DNA of 64,000 bases from Squalus acanthias (taxonomy: Eukaryota). The stretch spans positions 13,392,001 through 13,456,000 of the forward strand of contig CM059432.1 in NCBI GenBank assembly GCA_030390025.1. The letters run 5' to 3'. The notes beneath the pieces were generated by a model. That model did no database searches. It was not told the DNA's origin and saw only the letters and a list, made by a program, of their open reading frames with translations. Made by a program: the position numbers and the translations under genes. Below are positions 1 to 48,530 of the stretch, one piece after another; within the stretch, counting starts at the first letter, position 1; each line of letters opens with the position of its first letter.

Positions 1-2178
1 AATAGAGAAATGGCAGAGACTCTAAACAATTATTTTGGATTGGTCTTCACGGTAGAAGACACTAAAAACATTTTAATAACAATAGATAATCAAGGGGCTA
101 TAGGGAGGGAGGAACTTAAAACAATCTCTATCACTACAGAAAAAGTACTAGGCAAACTAATGGGGCTAAAGGCCAACAAGTCCCCTGGACCCGATGGCCT
201 GCATCCTAGGGTCTTAAAAGAAGTGGCTGCAGAGATAGTGGATGCATTGGTTGTAATCTACCAAAATTCCCTAGATTCTGGAGAGGATTGGAAAACCGCA
301 AATATAATGCCACTATTCAAGAAAGGAGGGAGACAGAAAGCAGGAAACTATAGGCCAGTTAGCCTAACATCTGTCATTGGGAAAATGCTGGAATCCATTA
401 TTAAGGAGGTAATAGCAGGACATTTAGAAAATCATAAGACAATCAAGCAGAGTCAACATGGTTTTATGAAAGGGAAATCGTGTTTGACAAATTTGCTAGA
501 GTTCTTTGAGGATGTAACAAACAGGGTGGATTAAGGGGAACCAGTAGATGTAGTGTATTTGGATAAGGTGCCACATAAAAAGTTACTGCACAAGATAAGA
601 GCGCACGGGGTTGGGGGTAATATATTGGCATGGATACGGGATTGGCTAACTAACAGAAAACAGAGAGTCGGGATAAATGGGTCATTTTCCGGTTGGCAAT
701 CAGTAACTAGTGGGGTGCCACAGGGATCAGTGCTGGGGCCTCAACTATTTACAATCTATATTAATGACTTGGATGAAACATAGAAACATAGAATCTAGGA
801 GCAGGAGTAGGCCATTCGGCCCGTCGAGCCTGCTCCACCATTCAGTACGATCATGGCTGATCATCCAAATCCAGTACCCTGTCCCTGCTTTAATCCCCAC
901 AGTACACATATCCCACCCTACCCCCATAACCCCACGTATTTAATTCCCCCTAACATATCCCATCCTATCCCCATAACCCCACATATTTAATCCCCCCCTA
1001 ACACTAAGGGTCAATTTATCATAGCCAAATCAACCTAACCCGCACATTTTTGGACTGTGGGAGGAAACCGGAGCACCCGGAGGAAACCCACGCAGACACG
1101 GGGAGAATGTGCAAACTCCACACAGACAGTCACCCGAGGTCAGATTCGAACCCGGGTCCCTGGCGCTGTGAGGCACCAGTGCTAACCACTATGCCACCGT
1201 GTTGCCCGAGGGACCGAGTGTACTGTAGCCAAATTTGCTGATGATACAAAGATAGGTGGGTTAGCAAGTTGTGAGGAGGACACAAAGAGTCTGCAAAGGG
1301 ATATAGATAGGTTAAGTGAGTGGGCAAAAATTTGGCAGATGGAGTATAATGTGGGAAAATGTGAGGTTATCCACTTTGGAAGGAAGAATGAAAAAGCAAA
1401 TTATTATTTAAATGGAGTGAGACTACAAAATGCTGCGGTACAAAGGGACCTGTAGGTCCTAGTACATGAAACACAAAAAGTTAGCATGCAGGTACAGCAA
1501 GTAATTAGGAAGGCTAGTGGAATGTTGGCCAATTGCAAGGGGTACGGAGTATACAAGTAGGGAAGTTTTGATGCAACTTTACAGGGCGCTGGTGAGACCG
1601 CACCTGGAGTACTGCGTACAGTTTTGGTCTCCATATTTAAGGAGGGATATACTTGCATTGGAGGCAGTGCAGAGAAGGTTCACTAGGTTGATTCCTGGAA
1701 TGAAGGGGTTGACGTATGACGAAAGGATGAGCAGGTTGGGCCTATACTCATTGGAGTTTAGAAGAATGAGAGGTGATCTTATTGAAACATATAAGATTCT
1801 GAGGGGGATTGACAGGGTAGATGCTGAGAGGATGTTTCCCCTAGTGGGGGTATCTAGAACTAGGGGGCATAGTTTCAGAATAAGGGGTCGCCCGTTTAAG
1901 ACGGAGATGAGGAGGAATTTCTTCTCTCAGAGGGTCGTGAATCTTTGGAATTCTCTACCCCAGAGAGCTGTGGAGGCGGAGTCATTGAATATATTCAAGG
2001 CGGAGATTGACAGACATTTGAACTACAAGGGAGTCAAGGGGTATGGGGAGAGAGCGGGAAAGTGGTGTTGAGGCCAAGATTGGATCAGCCAGGATCTCAT
2101 TGAATGGCGGAGCAGGCTCGAGGGGCCGATTGGCCTACTCCTGCTGCTGATGTTCTTATGTTTTTATATTCTTATGTT
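1..2178 (+). mobile_element. CR1-clade LINE, 3' part of ORF2 (RT) plus 3' UTR; degenerate and interrupted by a SINE
   Basis: ORF pieces contain [43 protein letters not shown] and LWNSLP. It ends in the CR1 stem-loop tail with (TTCTTATG)-like repeats. Stops and frameshifts are present. Confidence 0.9.
777..1207 (-). mobile_element. tRNA-derived V-SINE (HE1-like) with CR1-type tail
   Basis: The minus strand begins GGGCAACACGGTGGCATAGTGGTTAGCAC (A box) and has GGTTCGAATC (B box). The V-core is GTGTGGAGTTTGCACATTCTCCCCGTGTCTGCGTGGGTTTCCTCCGG, followed by a (TTTCTATG)n tail. It interrupts the CR1 at DLDE|GTEC. Confidence 0.85.
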
Positions 2179-2620
2179 CTTGTGGTGGAGGAAAGAAAAA
2201 AGACAAATCGAGATAACTCATAGTTGGAATGGTGACAAGATAATTCAAAGCTACTTGACACCTCATGCATAACTAATTATATCAGGCACATTAGGCACAC
2301 TGTAAAGTATTGCCACTTAGCACCTTGTTTTCCCAGCCAAATCCATTCCCAGAGGTTACATAACTACGTAACACTTCAAGAGACGAGCATTTTGAAACAC
2401 TGCATTAATTGTACTGTACATTACATTTATAACAAGTGGTTCCATATAAAAGCAGTTCTGTGGGGTTCCTTGTGCTCCTAGAATGTGCATCCTTTACATT
2501 GCAGGTTGGATTCCAGGATACCTGCAGCAGTAGAAAAAACAACTGCAACAGCCATTATCGTGACCTTCATTTCTCGATACAGGACCAGACTTTCCCGGCT
2601 GACAGGAGAGGATCCATTAA

Positions 2621-3070
2621 AAGAGAAAAAAGAAAGACTTGCATTTAGATAGCACTTTTCACGAACACTGGACATCCCAAAGCGCTTTACAGACAATGAA
2701 GTACTTTTTGAAGTGCAGTCACTGTTGTAATGTAGGAAACGCAGCAGCTAATTTGCGCACAGCAAGCTCCCACAAACAGCAATGTGATAATGACCAGATC
2801 ATCTGTTTTAGTGATGTTGATTGAGGGATAAATATTGGTTAGGTCACCAGGGATAACTCCCCCTGCTCTTCGACATAGTGCCATGGGATCTTTTACAACC
2901 ACCTGAGAGAGCAGGCGGGGCCTCAGTTTAACGTCTGACAGCACGTCCAACAGTGCAGCACTCCCTCAGCACTGCACTGGAGTGTCAGCCTAGATTTTTG
3001 TGCTCAAGTCCCTGGAGTGGGACTGCGAACCCACAACCTCCTGTCCCAGAGGCGAGGGTGCTACCCACAT
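2621..3070 (-). mobile_element. Deu-domain SINE (SacSINE1/AmnSINE1-like)
   Basis: The minus strand has a tRNA-like head, then GGAGTGCTGCACTG...GTAAAAGATCCCATGGCAC...TATTTATCCCTCAA (Deu core, recalled), and an L2-like tail ending (TTTC)n. Paralogues lie at 26551-27016 and 54879-55180. Confidence 0.75.
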
Positions 3071-3299
3071 TATTGACAGCTGTAATTCTGGCCATCTCAG
3101 TAAATGTGCTACATAGATCCACGCACATCCTACAGGTCACTTGTTCTACCTGGAGCCTGGGCTTTGAGCTTGTTTCTCGAATGGTAGCTCAACGTGCATC
3201 CGAAAAACTGGATGGCCCAAGTAATTTCCTGTCATCCGAGTCTGGGTTTTTGCATTAGTGCTCTCTCAAGTTCAAAAGTGGTCAGATCTGCTGCAGCAT

Positions 3300-4182
3300 G
3301 CCACTTACCTTCGGGCTTAGAGGGTTAAAGTATGAGGGCAGGTTGCATGAACCTGGCTTGTATTCCCTTGAGTATAGGAGATTGAGGGGTGATCTGATCT
3401 CGGTGTTTAAAATGTTACAAGGGTTTGATAGGACAGATAGAGAGAAACTATTTGCTCTGGTGGGGGGGATCAAGAACAAGGGGACATGATCTTAAAATGA
3501 GAGCTCGGCCACTCAGGAGCAAAAACAGGAAACACTTTTTCATGCAAAGGGTGGTAGAAATTTAGGACACTCTCCCCTAAAAGGCTGTGGATACTAAGTC
3601 AATTCAGTTTTCAAGACTGAGATAAATATATTTTTACAGGAAACTTTCGTTTATCCGGCATCGACGGGACCGGCGTGGTGCCGGTTTATCGAAAGTACTG
3701 GATAACGGAGAGTTATATCTACCGAGGCTATTTTTAACAAAGAGACTCCAGGCAGCGCGGGAGAATCAACTCCTGCTACTGCAGTGTTTCGGACTTCCGA
3801 CAGCGCCAGGAGGCCGAGTAGTGGCACTTTTGAAGAGTACCCCTACTGACTAAATCGGCGTTCGCGGACTCGGACTCGGACTCGGGATCGGCAACATTGC
3901 CGGTTATTTGAGAGGAGTTTTCGGAGCACTCGGCGTTCGCGGAGACTCGGCTGCGACTCGGCAACATTGCCGGTTATGTGAGAGGAGTTTTCGGAGGATG
4001 ATTTTTGCCGGTTAAGCGAGAATTCCGGATATTTGGGTGCCGGATAAACGAAAGTTTCCTGTATTAGGTAAGCGATATGGAGCAAAGGCAGATCAACAAA
4101 GTTGAGGCGCAGATCAGTCATGATCTAACTGAATGGTGGGACAGGCTCGGGGGGCTGAATGGCCTACTCTTGTTCCTAATGT
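3300..4182 (+). mobile_element. Degenerate CR1 3' fragment, host of a Tc1/mariner MITE
   Basis: Contains GLYSLEYRRLRGDLI and the CR1 3' stem-loop (GGGGCTGAATGGCCTACTC). Confidence 0.8.
3637..4061. mobile_element. Tc1/mariner (pogo/Tigger-type) MITE
   Basis: Perfect 24-bp TIRs (CAGGAAACTTTCGTTTATCCGGCA and TGCCGGATAAACGAAAGTTTCCTG) are flanked by TA on both sides. There is an internal ~70-bp tandem duplication. Confidence 0.9.
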
Positions 4183-11378: not shown

Positions 11379-12446
11379 ATAGAGTCATAACGGCACAGAA
11401 GGATTTCCATTCGGCCCATCGAGTCCGTGACTCCAGGATGGTATGTTGCCTCCCTGGTGCCAGGGTCAAGGATGTCACTGAGCGGCTGCAGGACACTCTG
11501 AGGGGGGAGGGTGAACAGCCAGAGGTCATTGTCCATATTGCTACCAATGACATAGGCAGAAAGAGGAATGAGGTCCTGCAGGCAGAGTTTAGGGAGCTAG
11601 GAGAGATTTTAAAAAGCAGGACCTCAAAGGTAGTAATCTCCGGATTACTCCCGGTGCCACGTGCTAGTGAGTACAGGAATAGGAGGATAGAACAGATGAA
11701 TGTGTGGCTGGAGAGATGGTGCAGGAGGGAGGGCTTTAGATTCCTGAGGCATTGGGACCATTTCTGGGGAAGGTGGGACCTGTACAAGCCGGACGGGTTA
11801 CACCTTAACAGAGCTGGGGCCAATATTCTCGCAGTGAGGTTTGCTAGTGCTGTTGGGGAGGCTTTAAACTAGCTTGGCAGGGGGGTGGGCACCTGCATAT
11901 AGAAGTAGAAAAGAGGAATAAAGTGCATACAAGAGTGAGTGCGTTGGATAGTACTAGAGAAGAAAGTAGTACTAGAGGCGGTAGTAATACCATATTAGAT
12001 AGGAGCAGTCTAAGAAAGACTACGAAAAATTCAAAAATGGGTTTAGAATGCATGTACGTAAACGCACAAAGTGTGGTGAATAAGGTTGGTGAGCTACAAG
12101 CACAATTAGCAGTGTGGCAATATGATGTTGTGGCCATAACGGAAACGTGGCTTAAAAACGGTGAGGACTGGGCACTTAATATTCAAGGGTACAAGGTGTT
12201 CAGAAAAGATAAGGAAGGAAAAAAGGGAGGTGGGGTGGCAGTGCTGGTTAAGGAAGACATTGTAGTGTTGGAAAGGAAGGATGTTCTTGAGGGGACAAGG
12301 ACAGAATCCATTTGGTTAGAGTTGAGGAGCAAAAAGGGTATGATCACGCTATTAGGTGTATTCTATCGGCCTTCAAATAGTGAGAGGGAGGTAGAGGAGC
12401 AAATCTGCAGGGAAATTGCAGAGATATGCAAGAGCTATAGAGTGGT

Positions 12447-14335
12447 TGAAGCGATTTTTACTAGTCCTAGCCCCTTTACGGCTACCCCGGATCAGGCGTA
12501 TTTCTCAAGGCATTCACTTTCAACTAAAGTTTGAGGTAGCCAAATCCTAAAGACGCTTAATTGGGTCTAAAGGTCCAGGCTATATCTCCCTAAAGGAAAG
12601 GAACAACCCGAGAATGTTACCGTCCTCCAGATAACGCTTTTAATAAGTTTAGCTAGACTGTAACTTTTCGGATATTATGAGGGTCCGGAAAACTCCCCAG
12701 AATTCTGTAACTCTCCACCAAAGAGTGTACAGAGATTGAGTTCGCAAATTTTTGATACAGAAGCCTTATGTGAGACAATTCTAAAAATATATAGATTTAT
12801 TAAAGAACCGACATGCAATTTACAGTTGGTGAATCAATTGCAACATTAATTGTTCTAAAAAGAGAAAAAATGCTATCTTATTATTAACAGAGAATCTTAG
12901 TTTTAAATCTTAACTTTTCTACAGTATTACAGTTCTTAAAGTGTTCTACAGGATATCCACCAATATCAAATACCTTTGATCCCTGAGGTACAAAGAGTTG
13001 GAGACTACAGAGCCACCTCTGAAGCCGAGAATCACTTTGCCTGATTAAAGCGAGTCTGTTATCCCATTTGAGAGTTCAATATTTATACCCTTTTCCAGTG
13101 GTATTTCCTTTAAGGTTTTCTGCTGATGCAAGCTAATTATCTCTAGTCATCTTTCTGCCAACCTCTGCAACTCTTACTGCCACCTCAGCCAGACTCGTGT
13201 CTCATCTCTAGATGTTCTAAGTTTACCATATAAAAATGGTGTGACAGCAGGTGTTCCTTACATTGTCAACATTATGAGAGCAGATGTTCCTTATCTTATG
13301 TGCTTCTTTATGAAGTGTAAATTAGAACACCTTATCCAGGGTGAACCATTGTTTCGTTCCCAAAAGTTCAGCCTGTTGGAGCCCTTCACCTTCTGTTTCA
13401 ATAAGGTTATTTATTCAGTGTGAACAACTATCTTATCTCAATATCCAGAATGCTTTCATAGCTATTTCATAGTTAGGTTTCTAAATTTCCAAACCCAGTT
13501 TGTCATGTTTTAATAAGGCCAGAATTCTTTCATAAGATAGTGGCCCAGAAATTCGCCTCTCCGGCTTGCCGCGGGGGTAAGGATCGCGCGCGCACTTACC
13601 TACCGCGCCTGCCGTTGTGTTTTGGGCCCACGGGAACTTCAGCTCCTGGTCCTGCTCCAAGAGCCGGCGCGCAGTGCTTGCGTGTCCCAGGGGCGTAGTT
13701 AGTGCGATGCGTCCCCTGGGATCACGTGGGCCTTGGAGAGCCAATGGCAGCAGACCATCTTTCATTCATAGATTTGACAGGAAGAGCTGTCAAATCTGTG
13801 AATTGAAATCGGCCCCAAAAGAACAGCTAAAATAAATTAAAAAATTTAAAAACCATCACATTTATAAAATAACTATAGTTAAATAAATTAACCACTTTAA
13901 ACAAAAATTTAAATTTTTGAAAAAATTAAAATACTTTTTAAAAGTGATAAAAATAAACTTACCTTTCTTTAAAGTATCTAAAAAAGATAAACCTGTTGAA
14001 AAAAAAATTAAATTATACTTAATTAACCACTTACCTTGTTGAAAACGGCTCCTGCGCCTCCTTTTTATAAGCGTAGGTTCTTCACTACTTACCCTCCCGT
14101 AGAAACCTGAAAAAAAATCTAAGTTCGCTGCGTGCGCGCAGCCTCTACCGCGCACGCGGTTCGCCCCCTTCACCAGACCGAAAGTTCCGGTTTCCCGCGC
14201 ATGCGCAGTGCATGCAGGAAACCGGCACTTCGGGATGCATTACGGGTGAGTACGCACTGTGTACTCACCCGGGAAGGGCCAAATTTTTGGCCCAGTGTAT
14301 TTTTCTGAATAGGTTATATGGCTTATTCCTTCACA
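12447..14335 (-). repeat. 3' LTR of the provirus (1134 bp after removing the MITE and its TSD)
   Basis: Colinear with 18668-19801. Termini are TGAAG...CCTTCACA. On the minus strand, TATAAATA lies at 13080-13087 and AATAAA at 12796-12801. Confidence 0.93.
13542..14293. mobile_element. PIF/Harbinger-like MITE (family A) inserted in the 3' LTR
   Basis: TIRs are GGCCCAGAAATT and AATTTTTGGCCC, with AGT on both flanks. It is absent from the 5' LTR. Paralogues lie at 27673-28438 and 44943-45681. Confidence 0.85.
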
Positions 14336-14346
14336 CACCCCTCTTG
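14336..14346 (-). promoter_or_regulatory. 3' polypurine tract
   Basis: The minus strand reads CAAGAGGGGTG immediately before the LTR start TGTGAAGG. Confidence 0.7.
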
Positions 14347-14620: not shown

Positions 14621-14968
14621 TCAAGGAGACGTCATTTGGAGCTGGCTAAAGCTTGACACGCTGTTCCATTGATCCAGCGTGAGGACAGATTCTTGTTTTC
14701 GTAAAGGCTTTGCCAGAAGTTCATTTGACTCCTTCTCCATCCGCAGTGTTTTCCTCCTTCGTTGAAGTAACTTGTTGGTCTTTACTTGTTTTGGTTGTGG
14801 CTTTTTGCGAATCCAATTCCTGAGGCGTTGCCAAGCATCGTGTGGAGGAGTCGACGACACTGTCTGGCTGACCGTGGTCAGTAGTTCGATCGCATCCAAT
14901 TCCTGTGTCGTGCTCCAAGCTGGGTCTTGAAAGACAGTGTACGACTGCACCTTGTATTGTTCCTCCAT
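14621..14968 (-). pseudogene. Truncated env-position ORF (115 aa) overlapping the pol end
   Basis: The ATG lies within the pol QNG codons just after TVSIDNLK, the register I recall for prototype foamy virus env. No transmembrane segment appears before the stop. Confidence 0.55.
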
Positions 14969-16251
14969 TTTGGTATCCCACAGGACATCTTTTGAGATTG
15001 TCTATGGAGACAGTTTTAAGAATATGCTTGCCATTCGGCTGATTAATATGTATTTTAACAGTTCTTTCGTTAATAACGGAACATATTTGAACAGGTTTTT
15101 TCCACTTAGGTCTTAAACCAGGTTTTTGCTCGAACTTCTTTTCCTGTACCCATTCTCCTGCTAGGGGTTGCCATGCTTTGTTTGTCAATTTTTTCTGCCT
15201 ATTTGTCTCCCTTATCCTCTGATCAATTTGATGTATCTCCTCTGTTACTTCTTTTTTTAAATCTAACTGTCGCTGTCGGGTCAAGGAATCAGAGAGTGTA
15301 GAGGCAATAAAAGAACTATGGGTAAGTGATGTATGCATCTCAACCCCATACATTAGATAATATGGAGTTTTAGAGGACACTGTCCCTGATGCAGATGCGG
15401 GCACATTATTAAGTGCTAGCTGCACCTCCGGAATGACGGTGGTCCACTTATTTCCCCTGATTCTCAACAGTTTGACCAATAGCTTTTTTACTTCCTGGTT
15501 TTTACGTTCCACCAGCCCCGCTGATTGCGGATGACGTGACGTGCTGTGCTCTAACCCAATCCCCCTTTGTTCGCAGTAGTCTTTGAAGACCTTGGAGACA
15601 AAGGCTCCGCCTTTAACAGAGTGTAAGATCTTGGGTGCACCAGCTACAGTAATTATGTCAGTAATAGCATTGGCGAGTGCGTTTTCCAAAACAATTTTTG
15701 TGGGGACCAGCCAGCAGAAGGAAGTGCATCCATCTACACAAACAAGAACGTGTCTGTATCCCAAAGACGGGGGAAGTGGTCCAATGAAGTCAATAAAGAA
15801 TTTTCCCATTGGTTCATCAGCTTTCACAAGAGCCAATGGTGGTGGCTTAATTAGTGATGACTTATTGGTTAAATTGCATGGCTCACAATTTGCCATGTAT
15901 GTTTTACAGGCCTTAAGCATGCCTGGCCACCAATATAAGGGAATCAATTTGCAGAATGTTGTCCTGGCACCACAATGTGCTTGACCTATGCCCTCGTGAG
16001 CTTCTTTTACAAGCTGTTCTCGTTTGTGTCTCGGGGGCACTTCTCGGTTTCTCCTGGGCAACTTAACTAGCACAATACCAGTAGGGGTTTCCGAGTAAAA
16101 GTATTTTGATGGATATCCTGGTGGATTCTCTTTTGTTGGGTCTAGTAGCTGAATCAGTTCCTCATCCTGATTAGCTGCCCGTTCTGCCCTAGTGACAACA
16201 TTAATATTGGCAGGCCCCTCTCGAGGGGGTGTCATGCAGACCGAACGTTTC
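14721..16251 (-). pseudogene. pol: Foamy-like integrase (NED, HHCC, catalytic core, SH3-like CTD); second catalytic Asp changed to Val
   Basis: Motifs are GYPSKYFY...VPP...AH, H..H/CEPC, KFFIDFIGPLPPSLGY, PKILHSVKG, HPQSAGLVERKN, and GEWVQE...LRPKWKKP...TVSIDNLK. Confidence 0.9.
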
Positions 16252-16255
16252 GCTT

Positions 16256-17891
16256 CTCCCTGGACTCAGCAAAGATCCCGGCAGACTGGAAAACTGCTAA
16301 TGTAACACCCTTATTTAAAAAGGGCAGTAGACAGAAGGCTGGAAACTATAGACCGGTTAGCCTAACATCTGTGGTAGGTAAAATTTTGGAGTCCATTATT
16401 CAGGAGACAGTAATGGGACATTTGGATAATCATAATTTAATAGGACAAAGTCAGCATGGTTTTATGAAGGGGAAGTCATGTTTGACAAATTTGCTGGAGT
16501 TCTTTGAGGAAGTAACATACAGGGTGGATAAAGGGGAACCAGTGGATGTGGTGTATTTAGACTTCCAAAAGGCATTTGACAAGGTGCCACACAAAAGATT
16601 ATTGCTTAAGATAAAAAATCACGGGATTGGGGGTAATATTCTGGCATGGATAGAGGATTGGCTATCTAACAGAAGGCAGAGAGTTGGGATAAATGGTTCA
16701 TTCTCAGACTGGCAATCAGTAACTAGTGGTGTTCCGCAGGGGTCAGTGCTGGGTCCCCAACTCTTTACAATCTATATTAATGATTTGGAGGAGGGGACCG
16801 AGTGTAACATATCAAAGTTTGCAGATGATACTAAGATGGGAGGGAAAGTAATGAGTGAGGAGGACATAAAAAACCTGCAAGGGGACATAGACAGGCTAAG
16901 TAAGTGGGCAGAGATTTGGCAGATGGAATACAATACTGGAAAGTGTGAGGTTATGCACTTTGGCAGGAAAAATAGTAGAGCAAGTTATTATCTTAATGGC
17001 AAGAAACTGGAAAGTACTGAAGTACAACGGGATCTGGGGGTCCTGGTGCACGAAACTCAAAAGGTTAGTATGCAGGTGCAGCAAGTGATTAAGAAGGCCA
17101 ATGGAATGTTGGCTTTCATTGCTAGGGGGATAGAATATAAAAATAGGAAGGTATTGCTGCAGTTGTACAAGGTATTGGTGAGACCGCACCTGGAATACTG
17201 CATACAGTTTTGGTGTCCATACTTAAGAAAAGACATACTTGCTCTTGAGTCAGTACAAAGAAGGTTCACTCGGTTAATCCCAGGGATGAGGGGATGGACA
17301 TATGAGGAGAGGTTGGGTAGATTGGGACTCTACTCATTGGAGTTCAGAAGAATGAGAGGCGATCTTATTGAAACATATAAGATTGTGAAGGGGTTGGATT
17401 GGGTGGATGCGGGGAGGATGTTCCCGATGATGGGTGAAACTAGAATTAGGGGGCATAGTCTTAGAATAAGGGGCTGCTCTTTCAAAACTGAGATGAGAAG
17501 GAACTACTTCACTCAGAGGGTGGTAGGTCCATGGAATATGCTGCCCCAAAAAGCTGTAGAAGCTACATCATTACATAAATTTAAAACAGAAATAGACAGT
17601 TTCCTAGAAGTAAAGGGAATTAAAGGTTACGGGGAGCGGGCAGGAATTTGGACATGAGTCTAGGTTCGGATCGGTCATGGCCCTGTGGGTAGCGTAGCGG
17701 GCCCAGGGGCCGTGTAGCCTGATCCTGCTCCTATTTTGTGTGTCCAATTCTGTTAGGTTCAGGAGATGGTTCTGTGATAGTAGATTGGCGGTTAGGATCA
17801 GATCAGCCATGATCTTATTGAATGGCGGAGCAGGCTCGAGGGGCCAATTGGCCTACTCCTGCTCCTATTTCTTATGTTCTTATGTTCTTAT
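16256..17891 (+). mobile_element. 5'-truncated CR1 inserted into proviral pol, with an open 428-aa RT frame
   Basis: GCTT flanks both ends (16252-16255 and 17892-17895). It has QGSVLGP and FADD motifs and a (TTCTTATG)n tail. Confidence 0.92.
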
Positions 17892-18403
17892 GCTTGTTCG
17901 TCTGCAAGACTGTTTCCTTTTGACTGTACTGTCCCAGTGGTATGCCCGTTTGCATGAATCACCTGACAATTCTGTTTCTCCATCCTCGAACGGAGAATGT
18001 ATTCCCATAATGACTTATGTTTTATGGGTTTACCCTTATGATTGGTAAAGTTTGTTTGTTCCCAGAAAACTAGATCTTGGTTATATCCTCTTTTACAATA
18101 GTCACTATCCATACAGATTAATGTGCGTTTAATAGGGTCTGCCTTTTCTAAAGCATACCGTAGTACTGCGGCTTCAGCATATTGCGCTGTCTTATGGCCA
18201 AGGGGTATGAACAGTAATTCTTCTGGATAAAAAGAATAAGAATCTCGAAAAGTCCCAACTACTATCCCCATCCCAGCTGAGGATTGTTGGGATGTCCCTA
18301 TTTTAATCGTCATTGACGATCCATCACAGTAAATGACTTGATGGTAGCAATCGTTTGAATTTCCTAATAAAAAGACTTGGCCAATTCCAACAGGGTTTGT
18401 CAT
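17892..18403 (-). pseudogene. pol: Retroviral RNase H domain of pol
   Basis: YCDGS, AQYAEAA, CMDSDY, NHKGKPIKHKSLW (basic C-helix loop), HANGH and GNSLADEQA. The D-E-D-D set is intact. Confidence 0.9.
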
Positions 18404-18647
18404 TTCGTCAGGGCCTAACCTCGGTTAGGATTTAATATGAACTTTATAAGAAATTTCTAGACCTCAATGGTATATTGAGGGAGTTCTCATTTAAATTCTA
18501 CAAGGCCTGATCAGGGACTTGTCATGTCTAGAGACTTAAATCTGGGTCTTAGTACCACTGTCAGTAAAACACTCCTTCTATACTTAACAATCTACGAGAT
18601 GGATATAGATATAAATATAAGTATAGGGTTCTGTATCAACTCATTAA

Positions 18648-18665
18648 CACACATGTTGGGCGCCA
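18648..18665 (-). promoter_or_regulatory. Primer binding site, tRNA-Lys(1,2)-type
   Basis: The minus strand reads TGGCGCCCAACATGTGTG two nt after the LTR end. The first 11 nt match TGGCGCCCAACGTGGGGC. Confidence 0.85.
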
Positions 18666-18667
18666 AC

Positions 18668-19801
18668 TGAAGGGATAATTACTAGTCCTAGCCCCTTTAC
18701 GGCTACCCCAGATCAGGCGTATTTCTCAAGACGTTCACTTTCAACTAAAGTGTGAGGTAGCCGAATCCTAAAGACGCGTAATTGGGTCTTAAGGTCCAGA
18801 CTATCTCTCCTTAAAGGAAAGGAACAACCCGAGAATGTTACCGTCCTCCAGATAGCGCTTTTAATAAGTTTAGCTAGACTGTAACTTTCCGGATATTATG
18901 AGGGTCCGGAAAACTCCCCAGAATTCTGTAACTCTCCACCAAAGAGTGTACAGAGATTGAGTTCGCAAATTTTTGATACAGAAGCCTTATGTGAGACAAT
19001 TCTAAAAATATATAGATTTATTAAAGAACTGACATGCAATTTACAGTTGGTGAATCAATCACAACATTAATCGTTCTAAAAAGAGAAAAAATGCTATCCT
19101 ATTATTAACAGAGAATCTTAGTTTTAAATCTTAACTTTTCTACAGTATTACAGTTCTTAAAGTGTTCTACAGGATATCCACCAATATCAAATACCTTTGA
19201 TCCCTGAGGTACGAAGAGTTGGAGACTACAGAGCCACCTCTGAAGCCGAGAATCACTTTGCCCGATTAAAGCGAGTCTGTTATCCCATTTGAGAGTTCAA
19301 TATTTATACCCTTTTCCAGTGGTATTTCCTTTAAGGTTTTCTGCCGATGCAAGCTAATTATCTCTAGTCATCTTTCTGCCAACCTCTGCAACTCTTACTG
19401 CCACCTCAGCCAGACTCGTGTCTCATCTCTAGATGTTCTAAGTTTACCATATAAAAATGGTGTGACAGCAGGTGTTCCTTACATTGTCAACATTATGAGA
19501 GCAGATGTTCCTTATCTTATGTGCTTCTTTACGAAGTGTAAATTAGAACACCTTATCCAGGGTGAACTATTGTTTAGTTCCCAAAAGTTCAGCCTGTCGG
19601 AGCCCTTCACCATCTGTTTCAATAAGGTTATTTATTCAGGGTCAACAACTATCTTATCTCAATAGCCAGAATGCGTTCATAGCTATTTCATAGTTAGGTT
19701 TCTAAATTCCCAAACCCAGTTTGTCATGTTTTAATAAGGCCAGAATTCTTTCATAAGATAATGTATTTTTCTGAATAGGTTATATGGCTTATTCCTTCAC
19801 A
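18668..19801 (-). repeat. 5' LTR of the provirus (1134 bp)
   Basis: Adjacent to the PBS. On the minus strand, TATAAATA is at 19301-19308, a candidate donor AAG|GTATTT at ~19194, and AATAAA at 19017-19022. Confidence 0.93.
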
Positions 19802-20499
19802 TGGTGATATTGGGGGACTTTAATTACCCAAATATTGATTGGGATAATGCTGGGGCAAAGGGAAAGGAAAGGGAGGAATTTCTGAAATGTGTTCAGGAGA
19901 ATTTCCTTGACCAATATGTTCTTGGCCCAACTAGGAAGGAGGCATTGCTGAATCTGGTGCTGGGGAATGAGGTGGGCCAGGTCGACCAAGTGTCTGTGGG
20001 AGAACACTTGGGTATGAGTGATCATCGTAGCATAAGATTTAGATTAGCAATGGAGAGGAGCAAGGAACAATCTAGAGTGGAACTTCTAAACTGGAATAGG
20101 GCTAACTTCAATGGGATGCAAAAGGATCTAGCCAGGGTAAAATGGAACCAAAGACTGACAGGAAAAACTGTAACGGAACAATGGGTGATCTTTAAGGAGG
20201 AGATGTTCCAAGTACAGGCTAGGTACATTCCAACAAGAGGGAAGGGTAAGGGAACCAAAGCAAAGGCTCCTTGGATGACGAGGGAGATAGAGAAGATGAT
20301 GAAACAAAAAAGGAGGGTGTATGATGCATGTCAGGTGAATGCTTCAAGGGAGAACCAGACCAAATACAATAAGTTGAGAGAGGAAGTGAAGATGAAAATA
20401 AGATTGGCAAAGAGAGAATATGAGAGTAGAATGGCGGTTAACATAAAAGGGAACCCAAAAATCTTCTACCGGCATGTAAACAGTAAGCGGGTCGTAAGA

Positions 20500-21001
20500 A
20501 CATAAGAACATAAGAACATAAGAAATAGGAGCAGGAGTAGGCCAATCGGCCCCTCGAGCCTGCTCCGCCATTCAATAAGATCATGGCTGATCTGATCCTA
20601 ACCGCCAATCTACTATCTATCACAGAACCATCTCCTGCATCTAACAGAATTGCACACACGAAATAGGAGCAGAATCAGGCTACACAGTCCCTGGGCCCGC
20701 TCCACTACCCACAGGGCCATGACCGATCCGAACCTAGACTCATGTCCAAATTCCTGCCCGCTCCCCGTAACCCTTAATGCCCTTTACTTCTAGGAAACTG
20801 TCTATTTCTGTTTTAAATTTAATTAATGTTGTAGCTTCTACAGCTTTTTGTGGCAGCATATTCCATGGACCTACCACCCTCTGAGTGAAGTAGTTCCTCC
20901 TCATCTCAGTTTTGAAAGAGCAGCCCCTTATTCTAAGACTATGTCCCCTAGTTCTCGTCTCACCCGTCATCGGGAACATCCTCCCCGCATCCACCCGATC
21001 C
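20500..21001 (-). mobile_element. CR1 3' fragment, same subfamily as 16256-17891, inverted within the host CR1
   Basis: AAGA flanks both ends (20496-20499 and 21002-21005). It shares the C-terminus ...GERAGIWT and the extended 3' UTR. Confidence 0.88.
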
Positions 21002-21630: not shown

Positions 21631-23415
21631 TGAAGGGATAATTACAAGTCCTAGCCCTTTCGGACTACCCCAGATCAGGCGTATTCCCCAGACGTTTATC
21701 TTCAACTAATGTTTGCGGTAGCCGGATCCTATAAGACACTTAATTGGGTCTAAAGGTCAGACTACCTCTCCCTAAAGGAAAGAAATGGTCTAAAGATGTT
21801 ACCGTCCTCCAGAAAGTACTTTTAATAAGTTTAACTAGACTGTAACCTTCCGGATATTATAAGGATACGAATACCCCCCAGAATTCTGCAACTCCTTTGA
21901 GTGTACAGAATTTGAGTTCGCAAGATGATACAGTAATACTCTTTGAGACTATTCTAAAAATATATAGATTTATTACAGAACCGACATTCAGTTAACATTT
22001 ATTATGGCAATCGCAACTTTAATCGTTCAAAATACAAATAGCTTACATTATCTTATTCTCAGATCTTTACTCTCAAATCTTAACTTTGTTACATTTCCAC
22101 ACTTCTACTTATTTCTTAATCCAGAATATCCACCAAAATCAAATACCTTGATTTACCGAGACTCAGAATTGAAAATTTACAGAGAATATCTGTGAAGTTG
22201 AGAATCGCTTGCCTTCCCAGCGACTTCTGCTTTTCCATCTGAAAAGCTTATATTTTTATCTCTTTTTTGGGTGGTTTATCCTTTGAAGTTTTCATGCTGA
22301 TGTAAGTTTAATTGTATCAAGTCATTCTTTGCTGACTTTGTTCTATTCTTTACTGTCATTTCAGCTGTCAGCTTTTAGACTTGTGTCCTGTTTAGATGTT
22401 TCCAAAACCATCATAAACACAATGACAGCAATGGTTTCTGTTTGATGCAATTCTTAGGAAGTCTTTCTATTGAATTTCTAATATTACTTTAACTGGTCTT
22501 TACCAGACGTTGTGACTCCGTGGTATTCCAAGTTCAATACAAGAACAATGTAATTGCTTGGTGCATGCATTGATGTCATTTTCAAATTCTTTCTGTAGGT
22601 ATCACAGTTACAATATGTGAATTGAAAACACTTTAAATCAGTGTTTACTTGTTTTCTAGCTATCTCAATTGGTTGCATATTTTATCATGTTTCCTGTCTT
22701 TAAGTTTAACATAAAACTATTTTACGACAGGTATTTCTTACTTGATGTCATTTTTTCAAAGGCACTTGGTTTTTTTAATGTTCTGTGCATCTGTCCGACG
22801 TGTTAGATTATAACACTTTACTTGGGTCATTCCATTGTTTTGATTCCAATGTCCAGACGCTCTGGAAGCAAACCTTTGCTTTATCAACACGGTGGCATAG
22901 TGGTTAGCACTGTTGCCTCACAGCGCCAGGGAGCCGGGTTCGAATCCGGCCACGGGTGACTGTCTGTGTGGAGTTTGCACATTCTCCCTGTGTCTGCGTG
23001 GGTTTCCTCCGGGTGCTCCGGTTTCCTCCCATAGTCCAAAGATGTGCGGGTTAGGTTGATTTGGCTATGATAAATTGACCCTTAGTGTTAGGGGGATTAA
23101 ATACGCGGGGATAGGGTGGGATATGTGTCGGTGCAGGCTTGATGGGCCGAAACGGCCTCTATCTGCACTGTGGGGATTCTGTGATTCTGTGATCAATAGG
23201 GTTTGTTTCTTGGTCAATAACCCATTCCCATATCAAAGCTTGTGGTGTTTTACAACTTGTGAATAGCTGATCTTTATCTCAGAAGCCTGTATTGTGCCTA
23301 CAGCCTGTGTCACTGAGGCTTTCAGACTTTTAACCCCAGTGTGTCATTTATTAATAATTTCAGAAATCTGTTCTTAGTTTCGTGTATTTTTCTGAATCCT
23401 GGCTATTCCTTCACA
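21631..23415 (-). mobile_element. Solo LTR of a related foamy-like ERV lineage, containing a SINE
   Basis: Starts TGAAGGGATAATTAC and ends TATTCCTTCACA, like the proviral LTRs. Flanks are GTAC and GTAT. The U5/R part aligns, while U3 is longer and diverged. Confidence 0.88.
22888..23191 (+). mobile_element. HE1-like V-SINE inserted in the solo LTR
   Basis: A and B boxes, V-core and (GATTCTGT)n tail, with ATCAA on both flanks. Confidence 0.88.
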
Positions 23416-24269
23416 GTATCACATAGAAGGCTGGTTAACAAAATTGAGGCTCATGGTGGGTCAATGGCAGCTTGGATAAGGAATTGGCTTCAGGACAGAA
23501 AACAGCTAGTTGTGGTAAATGGCTGTTTTTCAGACTGGAGGATGGTAGACAGTGGTGTTCCCCAAGGGTCAGTGCTGGGGCCACTGCTTTTTTTGATATA
23601 TATATATATAAATGACCTGGATATTGGAATAAAGAGTAAAATTTCTAAATTTGCCGATGACACCAAACTTGGGGGTGTGGCAAACAGTGAGGATGATACC
23701 AATCGACTGCAACAGGACATAGAAAGGCTAGCAGAATGGGCAGACAAGTGGCAGATAGAATTTAATACAGAGAAGTGTGAGGTGATGCATTTTGGCAGAA
23801 GGAACAAAGAGAGGCAATATACACTTAATGGCACAGTTTTAAAGAGTGTGCAGGGACAGAGGGACCTGGGAGTTAACCTGCATAGGTCCCTGAAGGTGGC
23901 AGGACATATTGAGAGAGTGGTTAGCAAAGCATATGGGATCTTGGGCTTCATAAATGGAGGTGTTGAGTACAAAAGTAGAGAAGTTATGCTGAACCTTTAT
24001 AAAGTGCTGGTTAGGCCACAACTGGAGTATTGCGTCCCGTTCTGGTCACCACACTTTAGGAAGGATGTGAAGGCCCTTGAGAGGGAGCAGAGGAGATTTA
24101 CCAGAATGGTTCGGGGGATGGAGGATCTTAGCTACAAGGACAGGTTGGAGAAGCTGGATTTGTTTTCATTAGGAGGTTGAGGGGTGATTTGATAGAGGTG
24201 TACAAGATTATGACGGATTTGGATAGGCTAGACGGGGAAAGGCTGTTCGCACTAGTTGATGGTACAAGG

Positions 24270-27016: not shown

Positions 27017-27672
27017 CACTAGATAAAGGCACTATATAAATGCAAGTTGTTGTTGTTGACACTGTTGTCATCGCTGCTGATATTGTTCCAGCAGAGTTTT
27101 AAAGCAAATTCTAATTTGAACTGTTAAAGTCCATAAAAAAAAGCATATAAAGCATTGGAAAGCATACAGAGAAGAGCAACTCAGGTGTAAAGAGGATAAG
27201 CAAGAAGGAAAAGATTAGGGAAATTTAAGCTCTACCATCTAGAAAGGAGATCAAGAAGGTGAGGCTCATTGCAGTATACAAAGTAATAAAAGGCATAGAT
27301 TGGGTAAACGCTATTGTTACTTCAAAATAAACCAGGTAAGCAGGACCGGAAGACACAAAGTTAAATTAGTAAAAAGTATATTTAGAATCAATATGAGGAA
27401 GGACATCTTTATTCAAATAGTGGTAAATGTTTGGAACTATCTGGCAGCTTCTGGCAGTGTTAGAGGCAGAACATCAGGAACATTTGAAAAGATGGTATGA
27501 TAGGCAACACAAACAGAAAATATTGGAAATATACACAATGTCAGTCAGTATCTGTGGAGAGAACAGACAAGCTCATGTTTCAGGCTGGGCGCTCCCTCTG
27601 GCCTATTGCCTTCTCTTGATCATTTTGTCCTTCACCTATCTTAATTTTCCCACCATGCCATCTAAATATAAT

Positions 27673-28438
27673 GGCCCAGAAATTCGGCTCCCTGGCTTCC
27701 CGCGGGTGCAAGGATCGCGCGCACACCTACCTACCGCGCCTGCCGTTGACCTCTGGGCCCACGGGGACTTCAGCTCCTGGGCCTCCTGCAGCTGCCGGCG
27801 CGCAGTGCTTGTGTATCCCAGGGGCGTAGTTAGTGCAATGCGTCCCCTGGGATCACGTGGGCCATGGAGAGCCAATGGCAGCAGACCATCTTTCATTCAT
27901 AGATTTGACAGGACCTGTCAAATCTATGAATTGAAATCGGCCCCAAAACAACACCTAAACTTCAAATAAATTTAAAAAAAAACACCATCACATTTTAAAA
28001 ATAACTATAAGTTAAATAAATTAACTACTTTAAACAAAAATTTAAATTTTTGAAAAAATTAAAATACTTTTTAACAGTGCTAAAAATAAACTTACCTTTC
28101 TTTAAAGTATCTAAAAAAGATAAACCTGTTGAAAATTTTTTTTTAATTGTAATTAATTAACCACTTACCTTGTTAAAAACGGGTCTTGCGCCTCCTTTTT
28201 AAAAGCGCAGCTTCTTCCATACTTACCTTCCCGGAGAAACCTGAAAAAAAACCTAAGTTCGCTGCGTGCGCGCAGCCTCTACCACGCACACGGTTCACCT
28301 CTCAACCGCTCCCTTCACGAGACCGGAAGTTCCGGTTTCCCGCGCATGCGCAGTGCATGCAGGAAACCAGCACTTCAGGAGGCCTTACGGGTGAGTACAC
28401 AGCGCGTACTCACCCGGCAAGTGCTGAATTTTTGGCCC
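27673..28438. mobile_element. PIF/Harbinger-like MITE (family A)
   Basis: Same TIRs and body as 13542-14293, with AAT and ATT flanks. Confidence 0.85.
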
Positions 28439-29979
28439 ATTGTCAGCATGGCAAACTATTCCAAAAAACTGATCATTCATTATCACTCTTTGAGTAAATA
28501 AGTTCTTTTTGATTTCTTTTTTAAATTAACCTTTCACTAATTTTCATTTAAGATTTCTGTTCCTACTTTGTCTGGTTTACTTGGATGTAATAATCTTGGT
28601 TTAGCCTATCCATATCATTAAAGGAAGATCTCTGCTGGAACGGCCATGTGTGTGTCAAGAAGGGTCAAGCTCAGCTGTGATGCCTCCCAGATTGAAAGCC
28701 TGCCTTTAATCAGCATCTGGTCTCATGCACGAAGAATACCAGAGGGTGGCCAACATTCGTGCAATGATACCGCAGCATGAATCAACCTCTTCAGGAAGGA
28801 GGGGAGACACTGGAAGGGGAAAAGATAGTTGAGTTCTGTTGCATTGGAATGCCATGATCAATATGCAGGTACTAGCAGGGTGGTGATGACAAGGCCTGAG
28901 CGCTCTTGAAGACCAAATTGGTCAGTGCCAAGAATGGTATTGAGCCATGACAAACAGGACAGTCCCAGTTTCTGTTTCCACTCTACGCTGAGTTAGCTGA
29001 TCTTAGCACGGGCAGATTTAGGGCACTAGAATTAGGCCTGGTCGAGGGAGGAGAACACTTATCCAGGACTTCCGTCACTGATTGCTATTCAGATGAGGAA
29101 AGGATCATGGCTTGGCTGCGATGCCCCAGGGGCCTCCTGGCCCACAGGGTCAAGGTTTCCACAGGAAGAATTGCCACTTGGGAAAGATATCTGAGCATCT
29201 GTGGAACCACAACTGCAAGAAGAATTTAAAATGACAACACTAAGGAAGAAAAAAACAGATAATACTCAAAATATTATCTGAAAAAAGCAAAGTAGGTTAA
29301 TGTTTTGGTATAACCTTTCAGGAGTAGAAGGGAGTAAATGGAAAGAAAAACAGAAACAGAAGCCACCTGCTGACAGTACCGTTCCACTTGTCATGTCGGT
29401 GAGGACAAGGTCAAGTTGGTTATGTTGTCATCCAAGATTGAAGAGCCTGCCAATATTCACTATCCAAACTCACACATAAAGAATGGGTACTTTGGAAAGG
29501 TACAGGTCCAATAACATTTTAATTTAAAACACATGAAATATCTCATCTCAGCAGAGATTCTAAACATGTTTTAAATTATAATGTTATGGGGGAGGAGAGG
29601 TGTTTCATTTGATAGTGCAGTACTTCTCCCAGAGTACTGGTAAAAAGATAAAAGGTTTTATCAAAATATTAACCTATCTTTCAGATCTGTGGTGGACCTT
29701 GACTATTTATTATCTGTGTTTTTCTCCTACAGTATTTAAATTCTTGTCACAGAAACCCTTGGAAATTTGATAAGTTCCTGATGATCCTTATGGAGCAATG
29801 AAATAATAATTCATTCTGTTCTGTAGACTGTATGTAAGTAAGTATTACCACTCGACTTTCACATTTGCATACAGTAAATAACCATTGACACAGCCTAGTG
29901 TAGAGGATAATGGGTACTTGTAAGTGAACTACAGCATTCCTGGCTTTTAAGGGCTCAGTACCATATCACATGGTACACT

Positions 29980-44942: not shown

Positions 44943-45681
44943 GGCCCAGAAATTGATCTCGCTCTGTTCCCGCGGGGGTAAGGAGCAGACGCGATCTCTC
45001 ACTCCGCGTTGGCTTTTTCAGATCCAGCTCGCACGAACTTGATGTTCCGGACATCAGCTGGGCAGTGCTTGCGTATCCCACCGGCGTAGTGAATTTGTGC
45101 GAGCTGTGGGATCACGTGACTCAGTTAGAGCCAATGGCAACACACCATCTTCCATTCATAAGTTTCACATACGTGCTGTGAAAGCTATGAATCTTACACC
45201 CCCCCAAAATAACAGCTAAACCTCAATTAAATTTAAAAAAAACCATCACATTAATAAAATAAGTATAGTTAAATAAATTAACCATTTTAAATAAAAAATT
45301 AAATTTTTGAAAAAATTTAAAATCTTTTAAAAAGTTATAAAAATAAACTTACCTGTCTTTAAAGTCTCTAAAAAAGATATACCTGTTAAAAAAAATTCAA
45401 AAAAATACTTAATTCACTACTTACCTTGTTAAAAGTGGGTCTTACTCCTTTTTCCATTTCTAAAATCTTCAGTACTTACCTGCGCGTCCAAAGCACTAAG
45501 TGCACAGCGTGCGCGCAGCCTGTAGCGCGCACGCGATGCACCGAGGAACCGCCCCCTTTTCCAAAGACCAAGTGCCGGTTTTCAGCGCATGCGCAGGGCA
45601 TGCAGAAAACCGGCAATTGGAGAGAGAATACGCGAGAGTACGCAGTGCGTACTCTCGTGCAGCGGGATGAATTTTTGGCCC
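44943..45681. mobile_element. PIF/Harbinger-like MITE (family A, diverged subfamily)
   Basis: TIRs are GGCCCAGAAATT and AATTTTTGGCCC, with AAT on both flanks. Confidence 0.85.
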
Positions 45682-48530
45682 AATGTGTTTGAATTATTGG
45701 GCTAGTAAATCAAGAAAGAATGGTACATGAGAAGATGGCCTTTTATAAACATTGTGTGACAGTAGAGGACAATTTTACTCTGGTCTTCATGGTGGAAAAG
45801 GAGGCTAGAGTTTTTGCAAGATTAGAGAAGGGAAGATGCCTATATTCATTAGTATAAGAACATTGTACGGAATAAACTAGGGGAATTGAAAGAAATAGGC
45901 GAGAAAATTGAAAATCTTTAGTTCTTTGGCTCGGTGTCAATTTTTGTCTGATTATGCTCCTGTGAAGCGCCTTACGACGTTTTCCTACGTTAAAAGGTGC
46001 TAAATAAATGCTAGTTGTTGCATCATCCCAACTGCGCTGGATAATATTGGGGGATTGTAAATGCTACACTATTGCAAAACGGGAGCAAAGGACAATTCAA
46101 GTAACTACAGGCCAATGAATTACACATCAGTAGTGTTAAAATTACTAGAATCCATAATCTGGGATATAGTTGGCATGATTTTGTGAAAGATAGGTCACAT
46201 TTGTCTAAGCTATTGAAGTCCTTTGGGGAATTTAAATGACAGTGATTCCCCCCCATTTCTGATGTGTGCTTCTGACAGGTGAGGCCCCTCTCCAGAAGCT
46301 TGAAATTACAAAATTAGCCCTTAAATCTGTTAGTTCCAGGGTTAATCATGAACTATCTAAGATAATTTGAACAATTTCAAGGTGTTGTAAATTCAGACTC
46401 AAACAATTTCAATGCTGTAGATTTTGGTACAACACCAAAATGTGAAGATAGAAATAGGGCTGCATTTGTCGTTCATGTTTCCTGCTCATTTCAAAGTGTT
46501 GCTTTTAAGATTGCAGCCTTGGGTGCCCTTTTATAATTTTTCTTCCTCCCTCCCTGAAGGCTCTACACATTCCATGGCTGAGGTCAGATTGGAAGTCTGC
46601 TTCCAGGCTTCCTCCTGTGCTGTGTTCTCTCTGGTCATGGGCATTTACCAAGTGCCTGAGCTAAGAGAGGGAGCACCAGTTGAATTCTGTTCTGTATCCA
46701 GCTGGTACTGATTATAGTCCCTCGAAGATCAATATTGAGGCTGGTCACCAGCGCTTGTTGCTGAGTGGAGTTTGTCACAGATGCACACGTAAACTGTCAA
46801 CAGAGCAGCTCCCTGGTTAAAGATTGTGGGTATGGAATAATTAGAACTATATGTCCGAAAGTGTTTTCAGATATTCTACAAATATGTACTTTATAGATGA
46901 ACATTTGTGACGAGTGATCTTTGTTATTGCTCGGATCTGCCTAGAAGCTGGTATTTTTTGCTGCCAGTGGGACTTTTTATGCCAAATTGTTGTAGTCGGA
47001 GAGCTATCTGTGGTAAGTGTAGAAATTTGTTAGGTTTGTCATGGGATGTTGTATTGTATTGGTGTATTTATATTGTGTACTCTACCCTGGGCCTCCAACA
47101 CTTTTTTCCACCAATTTTCTTCCACTCCCCAGGTCACCTAAAACTCTTGGGACCAAATTTCCGACCACTTGCTCTGGTGGCAGAGTGGGTCGTAAGTCTA
47201 TGATCCCCAAAGATGCAGACCCTGTCTTTAAATTGTGAGGACAGAGTTATTGGCATAGCCGGGGTGGCCAGCACTTGCAAGAGTGCTTCAGTCACATCTG
47301 CCATTTAAAGCTGGAGCAAAGCTTGCTCTGCCTGAGGTGGCCTGAGGCCCTTTCTGAGCCCAAGGCAAAAGGGAGTTTAGAAATTCTTCAGCTGCTAAAG
47401 GAACCAGTTCCTTGAGTAGCATAGATAATTGATGCCTTCTGAGAATCGATTATCTTTGAGAGACTATTAGTGGCTTTCCTTGTGCCTCATCGGTACTCTC
47501 GTCAGCTCGCTGGGCGTAATGAACGGGATTCCTGTTGTAGCCTGACTACTCCCCAGACGTGTCCTTTAATGTTGGGCGAGTGGGTTGGAAGATTCGCTCA
47601 GGCCCCCCACCCCACTGGAATTTCTTGTAAGGGTGAAAATGAGGCAGAATCCTGGTGGAACCAACTTCCGCCTATTTCCAGTCCCTCGACCGGAGAGCCA
47701 CTTCACTTGCATCTTGGCCCAGACTGGAATTTCACGCCCCTTGACTCCATCAGACATTGGGAGTCTTTTTGAAGACCCATTCAATTGTCATTATTCACGT
47801 GACCTTTATGATTAATGCTGGCAAGCTATTTAACTGAGGGAATCTTGCCCGGCATCTGTGCACTTCCAGCTGGTGGTATGGGATAGGAACCTTGGCTGAT
47901 TTTTATTCTTCTTAAGCCAGGGCACTTGGGTCAATTTAGCATCCCTACTGCAAGACCAGCTGAGAGCTAACTTTTCCCAGACCAAGGAGCTGACCGAGGA
48001 GGGGCGCTCCCTTTTAAATCAGCTAATTCTGATACTTGCAAAACTACAATAAAATCTTAGTGTTTCTGTCAGGGAAACTTGATGGAAGTGACACTACTGT
48101 GTTCAAGTGACGTCCTTTCGTTGTCACTTTCCACCTTAAAAAAAAAAAGTCACTGAGACTAGTAAATCAAACAAAATAGCAATGTGGCTCCACATTACTG
48201 TGTGAGCTATGCTTTTGCAGTGGAATGTTTGGAAGAAAGTCTTATTAATATAATTTTGCAGTTGGCTTAATGAAGTCTAGTACATCAAAGATGTATTTCA
48301 ACTAGCTCAACTACAATGTTTATCAAAGCAGTGTTGTCCCGGAAGCAAATACTATTTTACACCCTAGTGCCTTTAGCTCCTGTATCTGCTCTGAACAGGC
48401 AGGTGATTTGTGACTTTATAGTACAGTACATCGATTTTCCTATTATGTCAGCACTGTGTATAAGGAGTCGTTCAGATTTATAGTTCAAATAGGTTGCAAT
48501 TACAAATAACATTTCTGATGTCTCTGCCAG

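Follow-up and report, generated by a model that had tools for sequence, protein, structure and literature searches.

What kind of element leaves a provirus with both LTRs, a primer-binding site (PBS) and the 3′ part of pol, and almost nothing in between? A foamy-type provirus in Squalus acanthias raises this question, and a preliminary description of the locus had proposed a trans-mobilised defective genome rather than a random post-insertion deletion. The window referred to below is the whole stretch of DNA analysed, 64,000 nucleotides of contig CM059432.1 (assembly GCA_030390025.1, positions 13,392,001 to 13,456,000).

Anatomy and identity of the provirus

The provirus runs on the minus strand from 19801 to 12447 of the window between two TGGT duplications (Table 1), and it sits in the endonuclease region of an older CR1-type LINE (Exo_endo_phos_2 at 19762–20502). 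Its two LTRs agree at 1062 of 1096 aligned bases. The parts that the preliminary description listed as retained (both LTRs, PBS, leader, 3′ pol and polypurine tract (PPT)) are all present, together with the target duplication. Its spacings also held: the roughly 245 nt given between PBS and RNase H frame correspond to a 244-nt leader followed by an ATG at 18403, and the roughly 630 nt between the env-position ATG and the 3′ LTR measure 633 nt (14968 to 14335). It had also described gag, protease and reverse transcriptase (RT) as absent and the leader as fused directly to RNase H. Protease and RT are missing, but gag is not wholly absent: its first 19 codons lie between leader and RNase H, and they continue in frame into the RNase H start at 18346, outside the interval 18404–18667 in which the fusion had been placed. 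From the ATG at 18403, the open frame continues into RNase H and then into integrase.

Table 1. Features of the provirus in the window (positions in window coordinates)
Feature	Position	Strand	Remarks
Target-site duplication TGGT, 5′ side	19802..19805		Sequence at provirus edge
5′ LTR, 1134 bp, TG...CA	18668..19801	-	
PBS	18648..18665	-	First 11 nt fit the Lys-tRNA motif of foamy viruses (available text of PMC6669660)
5′ leader, 244 nt	18404..18647	-	Retained in the deleted families
gag, first 19 codons, ATG at 18403	18347..18403	-	
Family A junction	18346	-	In-frame join without GT-AG; sides overlap by 1 nt; lacks about 3.36 kb of gag-PR-RT
RNase H domain, foamy type	17892..18346	-	Pfam and PDB matches
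Later CR1 LINE insertion at RNase H/integrase boundary	16256..17891	+	RVT_1
Integrase and end of pol frame	14721..16255	-	Second acidic catalytic position non-acidic in window copy
env start, ATG at 14968, to first env deletion	14694..14968	-	
env island of 35 nt, flanked by env deletions of about 1.7 and 1.4 kb	14659..14693	-	
3′ PPT	14338..14345	-	
3′ LTR, split by a repeat of about 750 bp at about 13543–14295	12447..14335	-	
Target-site duplication TGGT, 3′ side	12443..12446		Sequence at provirus edge

The CR1 at 16256–17891 and the repeat within the 3′ LTR are later insertions; at the site of the CR1, other copies read across without it. This CR1 encodes RT in an open frame of some 500 codons, and an inverted CR1 end at 20501–21003 matches it with 94.6% identity. 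The repeat has imperfect inverted ends and resembles a non-autonomous DNA transposon, with relatives at 27665–28443 and 45062–45690 of the window and inside several other proviral copies. A solo LTR of a related subtype (21631–23416, minus strand) lies within another CR1; it carries a repeat inserted at 22885–23192 and a 4-bp duplication with one mismatch, and it is 75% identical to the LTR of the window provirus and 83–85% identical to those of L086, L094 and L101. ARAGORN found no tRNA genes in the window.

The RNase H of the window copy matched Pfam RNase_H (E 1.1e-15), and its best PDB matches were foamy Pol (E 3.5e-25). Its integrase matched that of prototype foamy virus (PFV) at E 2.8e-78, as against 1.5e-14 for Ty3, and was 39–42% identical to seven foamy Pol proteins. 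Longer copies of the family, but not the window copy, contain an A9 protease and a foamy virus (FV) Gag (PF03539, PF20672) as well as FV Env (PF03408), and in two protease-bearing copies the FV Gag central domain lies 3′ of the gag ATG. Exact 4-bp target duplications, of the length made by foamy viruses, flank 29 of 40 copies. Judged by Pol, protease, Gag, Env, PBS and target duplication, the element is a foamy-like endogenous retrovirus (ERV).

The longer copies also suggest how Pol was made. In 35 of 48, gag and pol share one frame with a stop between them, and no methionine common to the copies precedes protease in the 30 codons examined past the gag stop. This arrangement suggests that Pol was a read-through product of gag, and it would probably have been packaged as Gag-Pol. 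The separate Pol of mammalian-type foamy viruses (Spumaretrovirinae proper), made from a spliced RNA with its own start, thus does not appear to be a feature of this family. A single stop-free gag-pol frame, which two copies had indicated, was rejected given the stop in those 35 copies. In the other 13, the stop is replaced by a sense codon (for example in L094, L097, L101 and L172), and four of these 13 also lack about 1 kb of gag.

Multi-copy short forms and their longer relatives

Using positions 18150–18665 of the window as a query against the 3.7-Gb genome, we obtained 681 candidates. All 40 that were scored read across the window junction with 93–100% identity, and the same junction is present in all 39 loci fetched; we call these copies family A. 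An exact 17-mer over the junction had 44 matches on more than 20 contigs (control, 0), and because it is intact in 27 of the 39 fetched copies, family A should number roughly 60 copies. The family is carried by contigs of four public runs with four organism codes. Both ends were visible in 23 copies: 16 of these have 4-bp target duplications that are exact and all different, five have one mismatch and two do not fit. LTR pairs are 94.8–97.5% identical in 15 of 16 copies.

For comparison, we used 49 loci matching the foamy protease family, of which 40 were fetched. The gag start of 37 of these corresponds to the window ATG at 18403. Both breakpoints could be placed in 32; the gap measured 3341–3366 nt in 14 of them, and the short junction occurred in none. 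Mapped against these longer copies, the two sides of junction A share a single base, and a splice donor is absent. Since the same junction recurs at loci that mostly have their own target duplications, the deleted genome itself was copied; and since these copies lack gag, protease and RT, their insertions must, judging from gene content and separate insertion sites, have used proteins from elsewhere. The short form is real and multi-copy, and was almost certainly mobilised in trans. On this point the preliminary description stands: the leader–RNase H junction is not unique to the window locus, and longer copies hold the missing genes.

A second set of copies, family B, represents an independent deletion: 38 gag codons are retained and pol sequence restarts 20 nt deeper in RNase H than in family A, again in frame, so that 57 nt of gag are retained in A and 115 nt in B. 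Family B accounts for 23 of 119 sampled loci and 14 of 31 gag-side matches on contigs C1 and C2; its junction has 46 exact matches, and 9 of 13 copies have exact target duplications. The junction B overlap is about 3 nt, with similar sequence on both sides. One of the exact matches, L067 (G000:C273, about 935040), carries family B junction sequence immediately after junction A and so resembles a recombinant of the two short genomes; it is a single case. Junction A itself occurs on two LTR and 3′-tail backgrounds (L031–L069): about 17 copies resemble env-bearing loci and the others gag-pol copies without env, a pattern that points to recombination with helpers of more than one type. At L102 and L117, two proviral copies in tandem apparently share one LTR.

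The preliminary description had treated the env gap as part of the short form. The gap does recur, but it consists of two deletions around a 35-nt island, with overlaps of 2 and 4 nt relative to env-bearing copies, and it is not confined to short copies: all 35 family A and all 19 family B copies compared contain this tail without a break, as do 32 of 35 other copies. Exact matches numbered 178 for the env-deleted form (control, 1) against 14 for the env-present form. A stricter first look in the env family search gave at least 11 matches to env-bearing copies, which are 87.5–93.8% identical in the integrase region. The env deletion is older than the short forms and common to longer gag-pol copies. 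These longer copies share PBS, leader and env junction with the short forms (integrase about 94% identical, LTR median 83%), and they are the likely helpers. The likely order is from an env-bearing virus to an env-less gag-pol element to the short forms; integrase and LTR trees are mostly star-like and neither resolve nor prove it. According to the available text of PMC3185757, env-deficient PFV constructs can reintegrate within a cell. L110 and L163 have a different env deletion that keeps about 240–300 nt more, and hence env was lost or rearranged more than once. Mammalian-type foamy viruses possess an internal promoter and tas/bet accessory genes; in L135, about 0.5 kb separates the env match from the LTR.

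How did the junctions arise? A one-off post-insertion deletion multiplied by segmental duplication would predict shared flanks, and these were seen in only two near-identical pairs, L054/L068 and L063/L065 (G000:C19), which probably are segmental duplicates and from each of which one locus was left out of allele counts. The 16 different exact duplications, the spread of exact matches over more than 20 contigs and a pairwise integrase identity of about 95% within family A refute this account. Junction A is also crossed by two contigs (records 30 and 31) from X9, a different public run. We regard a multiplied one-off deletion, and likewise an assembly error, as extremely improbable. Reverse transcription of a spliced viral RNA, the origin of the foamy ΔTas provirus, would fit the AG just ahead of the 3′ breakpoint of junction A and the pyrimidine-rich stretch ending in AG ahead of the env island. 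Yet no examined junction starts with GT or GC, no GT–AG pair bounds the missing segments, and the sides of the breakpoints share a few bases, namely 1 nt at A, about 3 nt at B, and 2 nt and 4 nt at the two env deletions; a splice origin was accordingly rejected as very improbable. Rather, deletion A would be a single event, a template switch that took place while an env-less genome was being reverse transcribed.

Retention of the 3′ pol region

Our best explanation, which we consider probable, is that the locus belongs to a multi-copy non-autonomous foamy-type ERV lacking gag, protease, RT and env, that proteins of longer copies likely carried out packaging, copying and integration of its RNA, and that its 3′ pol was kept because it was needed in cis. 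The LTRs, PBS, leader and PPT would have served priming and strand transfer; the integrase-coding region would have been kept for a cis need, most likely as RNA, like the foamy CAS-II element; and one open frame from the gag start probably gave the short RNA further help. All examined copies are now decayed.

The distribution of deletions is consistent with such a need. Measured on one natural long copy as a ruler, 10 deletions occur in two or more copies among the 119 loci, all within ruler positions 320–4017. None of the 10 touches integrase (P about 0.01 for random placement), compared with 7 of 19 single-copy deletions (Fisher 0.03); these statistics are soft, as sampling was non-random (the junction served to select 39 loci, protease another 40, and short spacing 13 of the final 40) and several of the 10 deletions are stacked in the same copies and so are not all independent. 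About 1.75 kb of RNase H and integrase is kept. This is close to the CAS-II of PFV, a segment of about 1.8 kb in 3′ pol that contributes to packaging and Pol encapsidation and includes the central PPT, as given in the available text of PMC5035957. If Pol entered particles as Gag-Pol, the Pol-encapsidation reason for CAS-II may not apply here.

Catalysis seems not to be why integrase sequence was kept. A two-base variant, its bases perfectly linked, removes the second catalytic Asp (aligned to PFV) in 33 of 106 copies: 15 of 34 in family A, 9 of 21 in family B, 9 of 44 others and 0 of 7 env-bearing copies. Several carriers have exact target duplications. The variant had looked like a marker of one family A subfamily, a reading rejected on its occurrence in A, B and longer copies. 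Together with the sparing of integrase by multi-copy deletions, so widespread a variant argues for a role of 3′ pol in cis rather than in catalysis, and a cis need for the integrase region is likely. Two results count against an RNA element. Synonymous variation among the longer copies is not lower in integrase (8.5–10.8 per 100 codons) than in gag or RT (6.1–8.9), and of the purine runs at least 11 nt long in the retained 3′ region, three in number, none copies the 3′ PPT.

Two alternatives turn on translation of the retained region. In one, mobilisation was again in trans but 3′ pol was kept mainly so that the fused gag–RNase H–integrase frame could be translated in cis, for RNA stability, export, capsid hand-over or a non-catalytic protein role. 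Both large families are in frame (39 of 39 A copies, 21 of 23 B copies), as is a B variant 6 nt longer in four copies. Moreover, the five in-frame multi-copy deletions are the five most sampled (39, 23, 6, 6 and 5 copies, against 4, 3, 2, 2 and 2 for the five out of frame), an ordering expected by chance once in 252 cases, or once in 56 if the two selected families are set aside. A review further states, in its available text, that the fusion protein of mouse IAP 1Δ1 works in cis (PMC6466679). However, out-of-frame deletions still reached two to four loci, single-copy deletions are in frame in 6 of 10 scored, the similar sequence flanking junction B could itself favour that frame, and the catalytic substitution spread freely. 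Translation in cis, which we regard as possible but somewhat doubtful as the main reason, would also allow in-frame cuts into integrase, and no multi-copy deletion of this kind was seen; we therefore favour an RNA element helped by the frame over translation in cis alone. In the other alternative, functional integrase or RNase H came from the short genomes, which would have used it themselves or provided it to helpers. In its favour, the fusion keeps the frame, and family A copies mostly retain most catalytic positions (RNase H positions in 32–38 of 35–38 copies; first integrase Asp in 34 of 35 and Glu in 33 of 35), but recent origin alone explains such retention, the second Asp is replaced in 15 of 34 copies by the shared variant, and the fusion has no protease to release integrase. 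Private shared changes of family A, at only 18 sites, look neutral (12 N/6 S versus 356/129, p 0.59), with no sign of protein-level selection, whereas those of longer copies (40/25 versus 423/114, p 0.003) indicate it. Such a division of labour is improbable.

The favoured reading, a 3′ pol kept in cis chiefly as RNA, thus retains part of the earlier comparison with a foamy vector that kept its packaging parts: independent deletions do spare leader and integrase, but the read-through Pol, the rival of translation in cis and the presence of the env deletion in helpers all qualify the likeness.

Related elements and implications

Genes were lost, LTRs, PBS and PPT kept, independent sites occupied and a partner found in the same genome, as expected of a non-autonomous LTR retroelement, which the short forms appear to be. 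Little or no pol is kept in ETn/MusD, VL30/MLV and MaLR/ERV-L, whereas RNase H and integrase sequence is kept in both large families here. Those elements are similar in being non-autonomous LTR elements moved by an autonomous partner, as described in the available text of PMC6466679. According to the same source, mouse IAP 1Δ1 is an ERV family without env in which an internal deletion recurs and places gag and pol in one frame; it is non-autonomous, requires Gag and Pol in trans and has been very successful. IAP, however, is class II (beta-like) and loses 1.9 kb. By contrast, the foamy-type element loses about 3.36 kb including nearly all of gag, and its two deletion families end within 20 nt of each other.

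An endogenous foamy virus of cartilaginous fish was reportedly described by Wang, Chen and Cui in 2023. Fish, amphibian and chimaera foamy-like ERVs share the foamy-type protease, Gag, Pol and Env (PMC5512871, PMC5210030). In the available portions of these reports, no multi-copy deleted subfamily with a shared junction is described, nor is a multi-copy deleted foamy subfamily in the wider literature consulted (including also PMC6669660, PMC6955096, PMC4422223, PMC12642411, PMC10581153 and PMC12386078), which covers work on cartilaginous-fish foamy viruses incompletely, so that novelty is provisional. For two fish families, complementation in trans is mentioned as possible in the available text of PMC5512871; the copies described here go beyond that, as sequence evidence for trans complementation among endogenous foamy viruses. 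Deleted ERVs that ride on helpers are a familiar phenomenon in general, and in that respect the family is only moderately surprising.

Foamy viruses stand out in requiring a second cis-acting element in 3′ pol, which has until now been defined with laboratory vectors derived from mammalian viruses. Two large families here independently cut the genome to nearly the layout of a foamy vector. PFV transfer vectors (CAS-I/II/III) likewise keep LTRs, PBS, leader and gag start, about 1.8 kb of 3′ pol and PPT, a likeness of layout (available text of PMC5035957 and PMC3185757). In PFV, however, CAS-I extends about 200 nt into gag (same sources), whereas 57 or 115 nt sufficed here; PFV Pol comes from a separate spliced RNA, whereas this family seems to use read-through; and no perfect copy of a central PPT was seen here.

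The hundreds of fossil copies amount to a natural deletion series in a distant foamy lineage, and the pieces that short copies always kept likely mark signals that the viral RNA needed. In a tentative, more specific reading, to which we give less than even credence, the repeated deletions would map the cis-acting RNA of an early-branching foamy lineage to the leader with under 60 nt of gag and to the integrase region; the frame would be a second filter, and the dead integrase allele would have spread through env-less classes by recombination in shared particles. The series offers a way to ask whether the 3′ pol element preceded separate Pol expression. If this reading is true, dependence of the RNA on 3′ pol would predate separate Pol expression as found in mammalian foamy viruses, because this lineage apparently relies on a read-through Gag-Pol.
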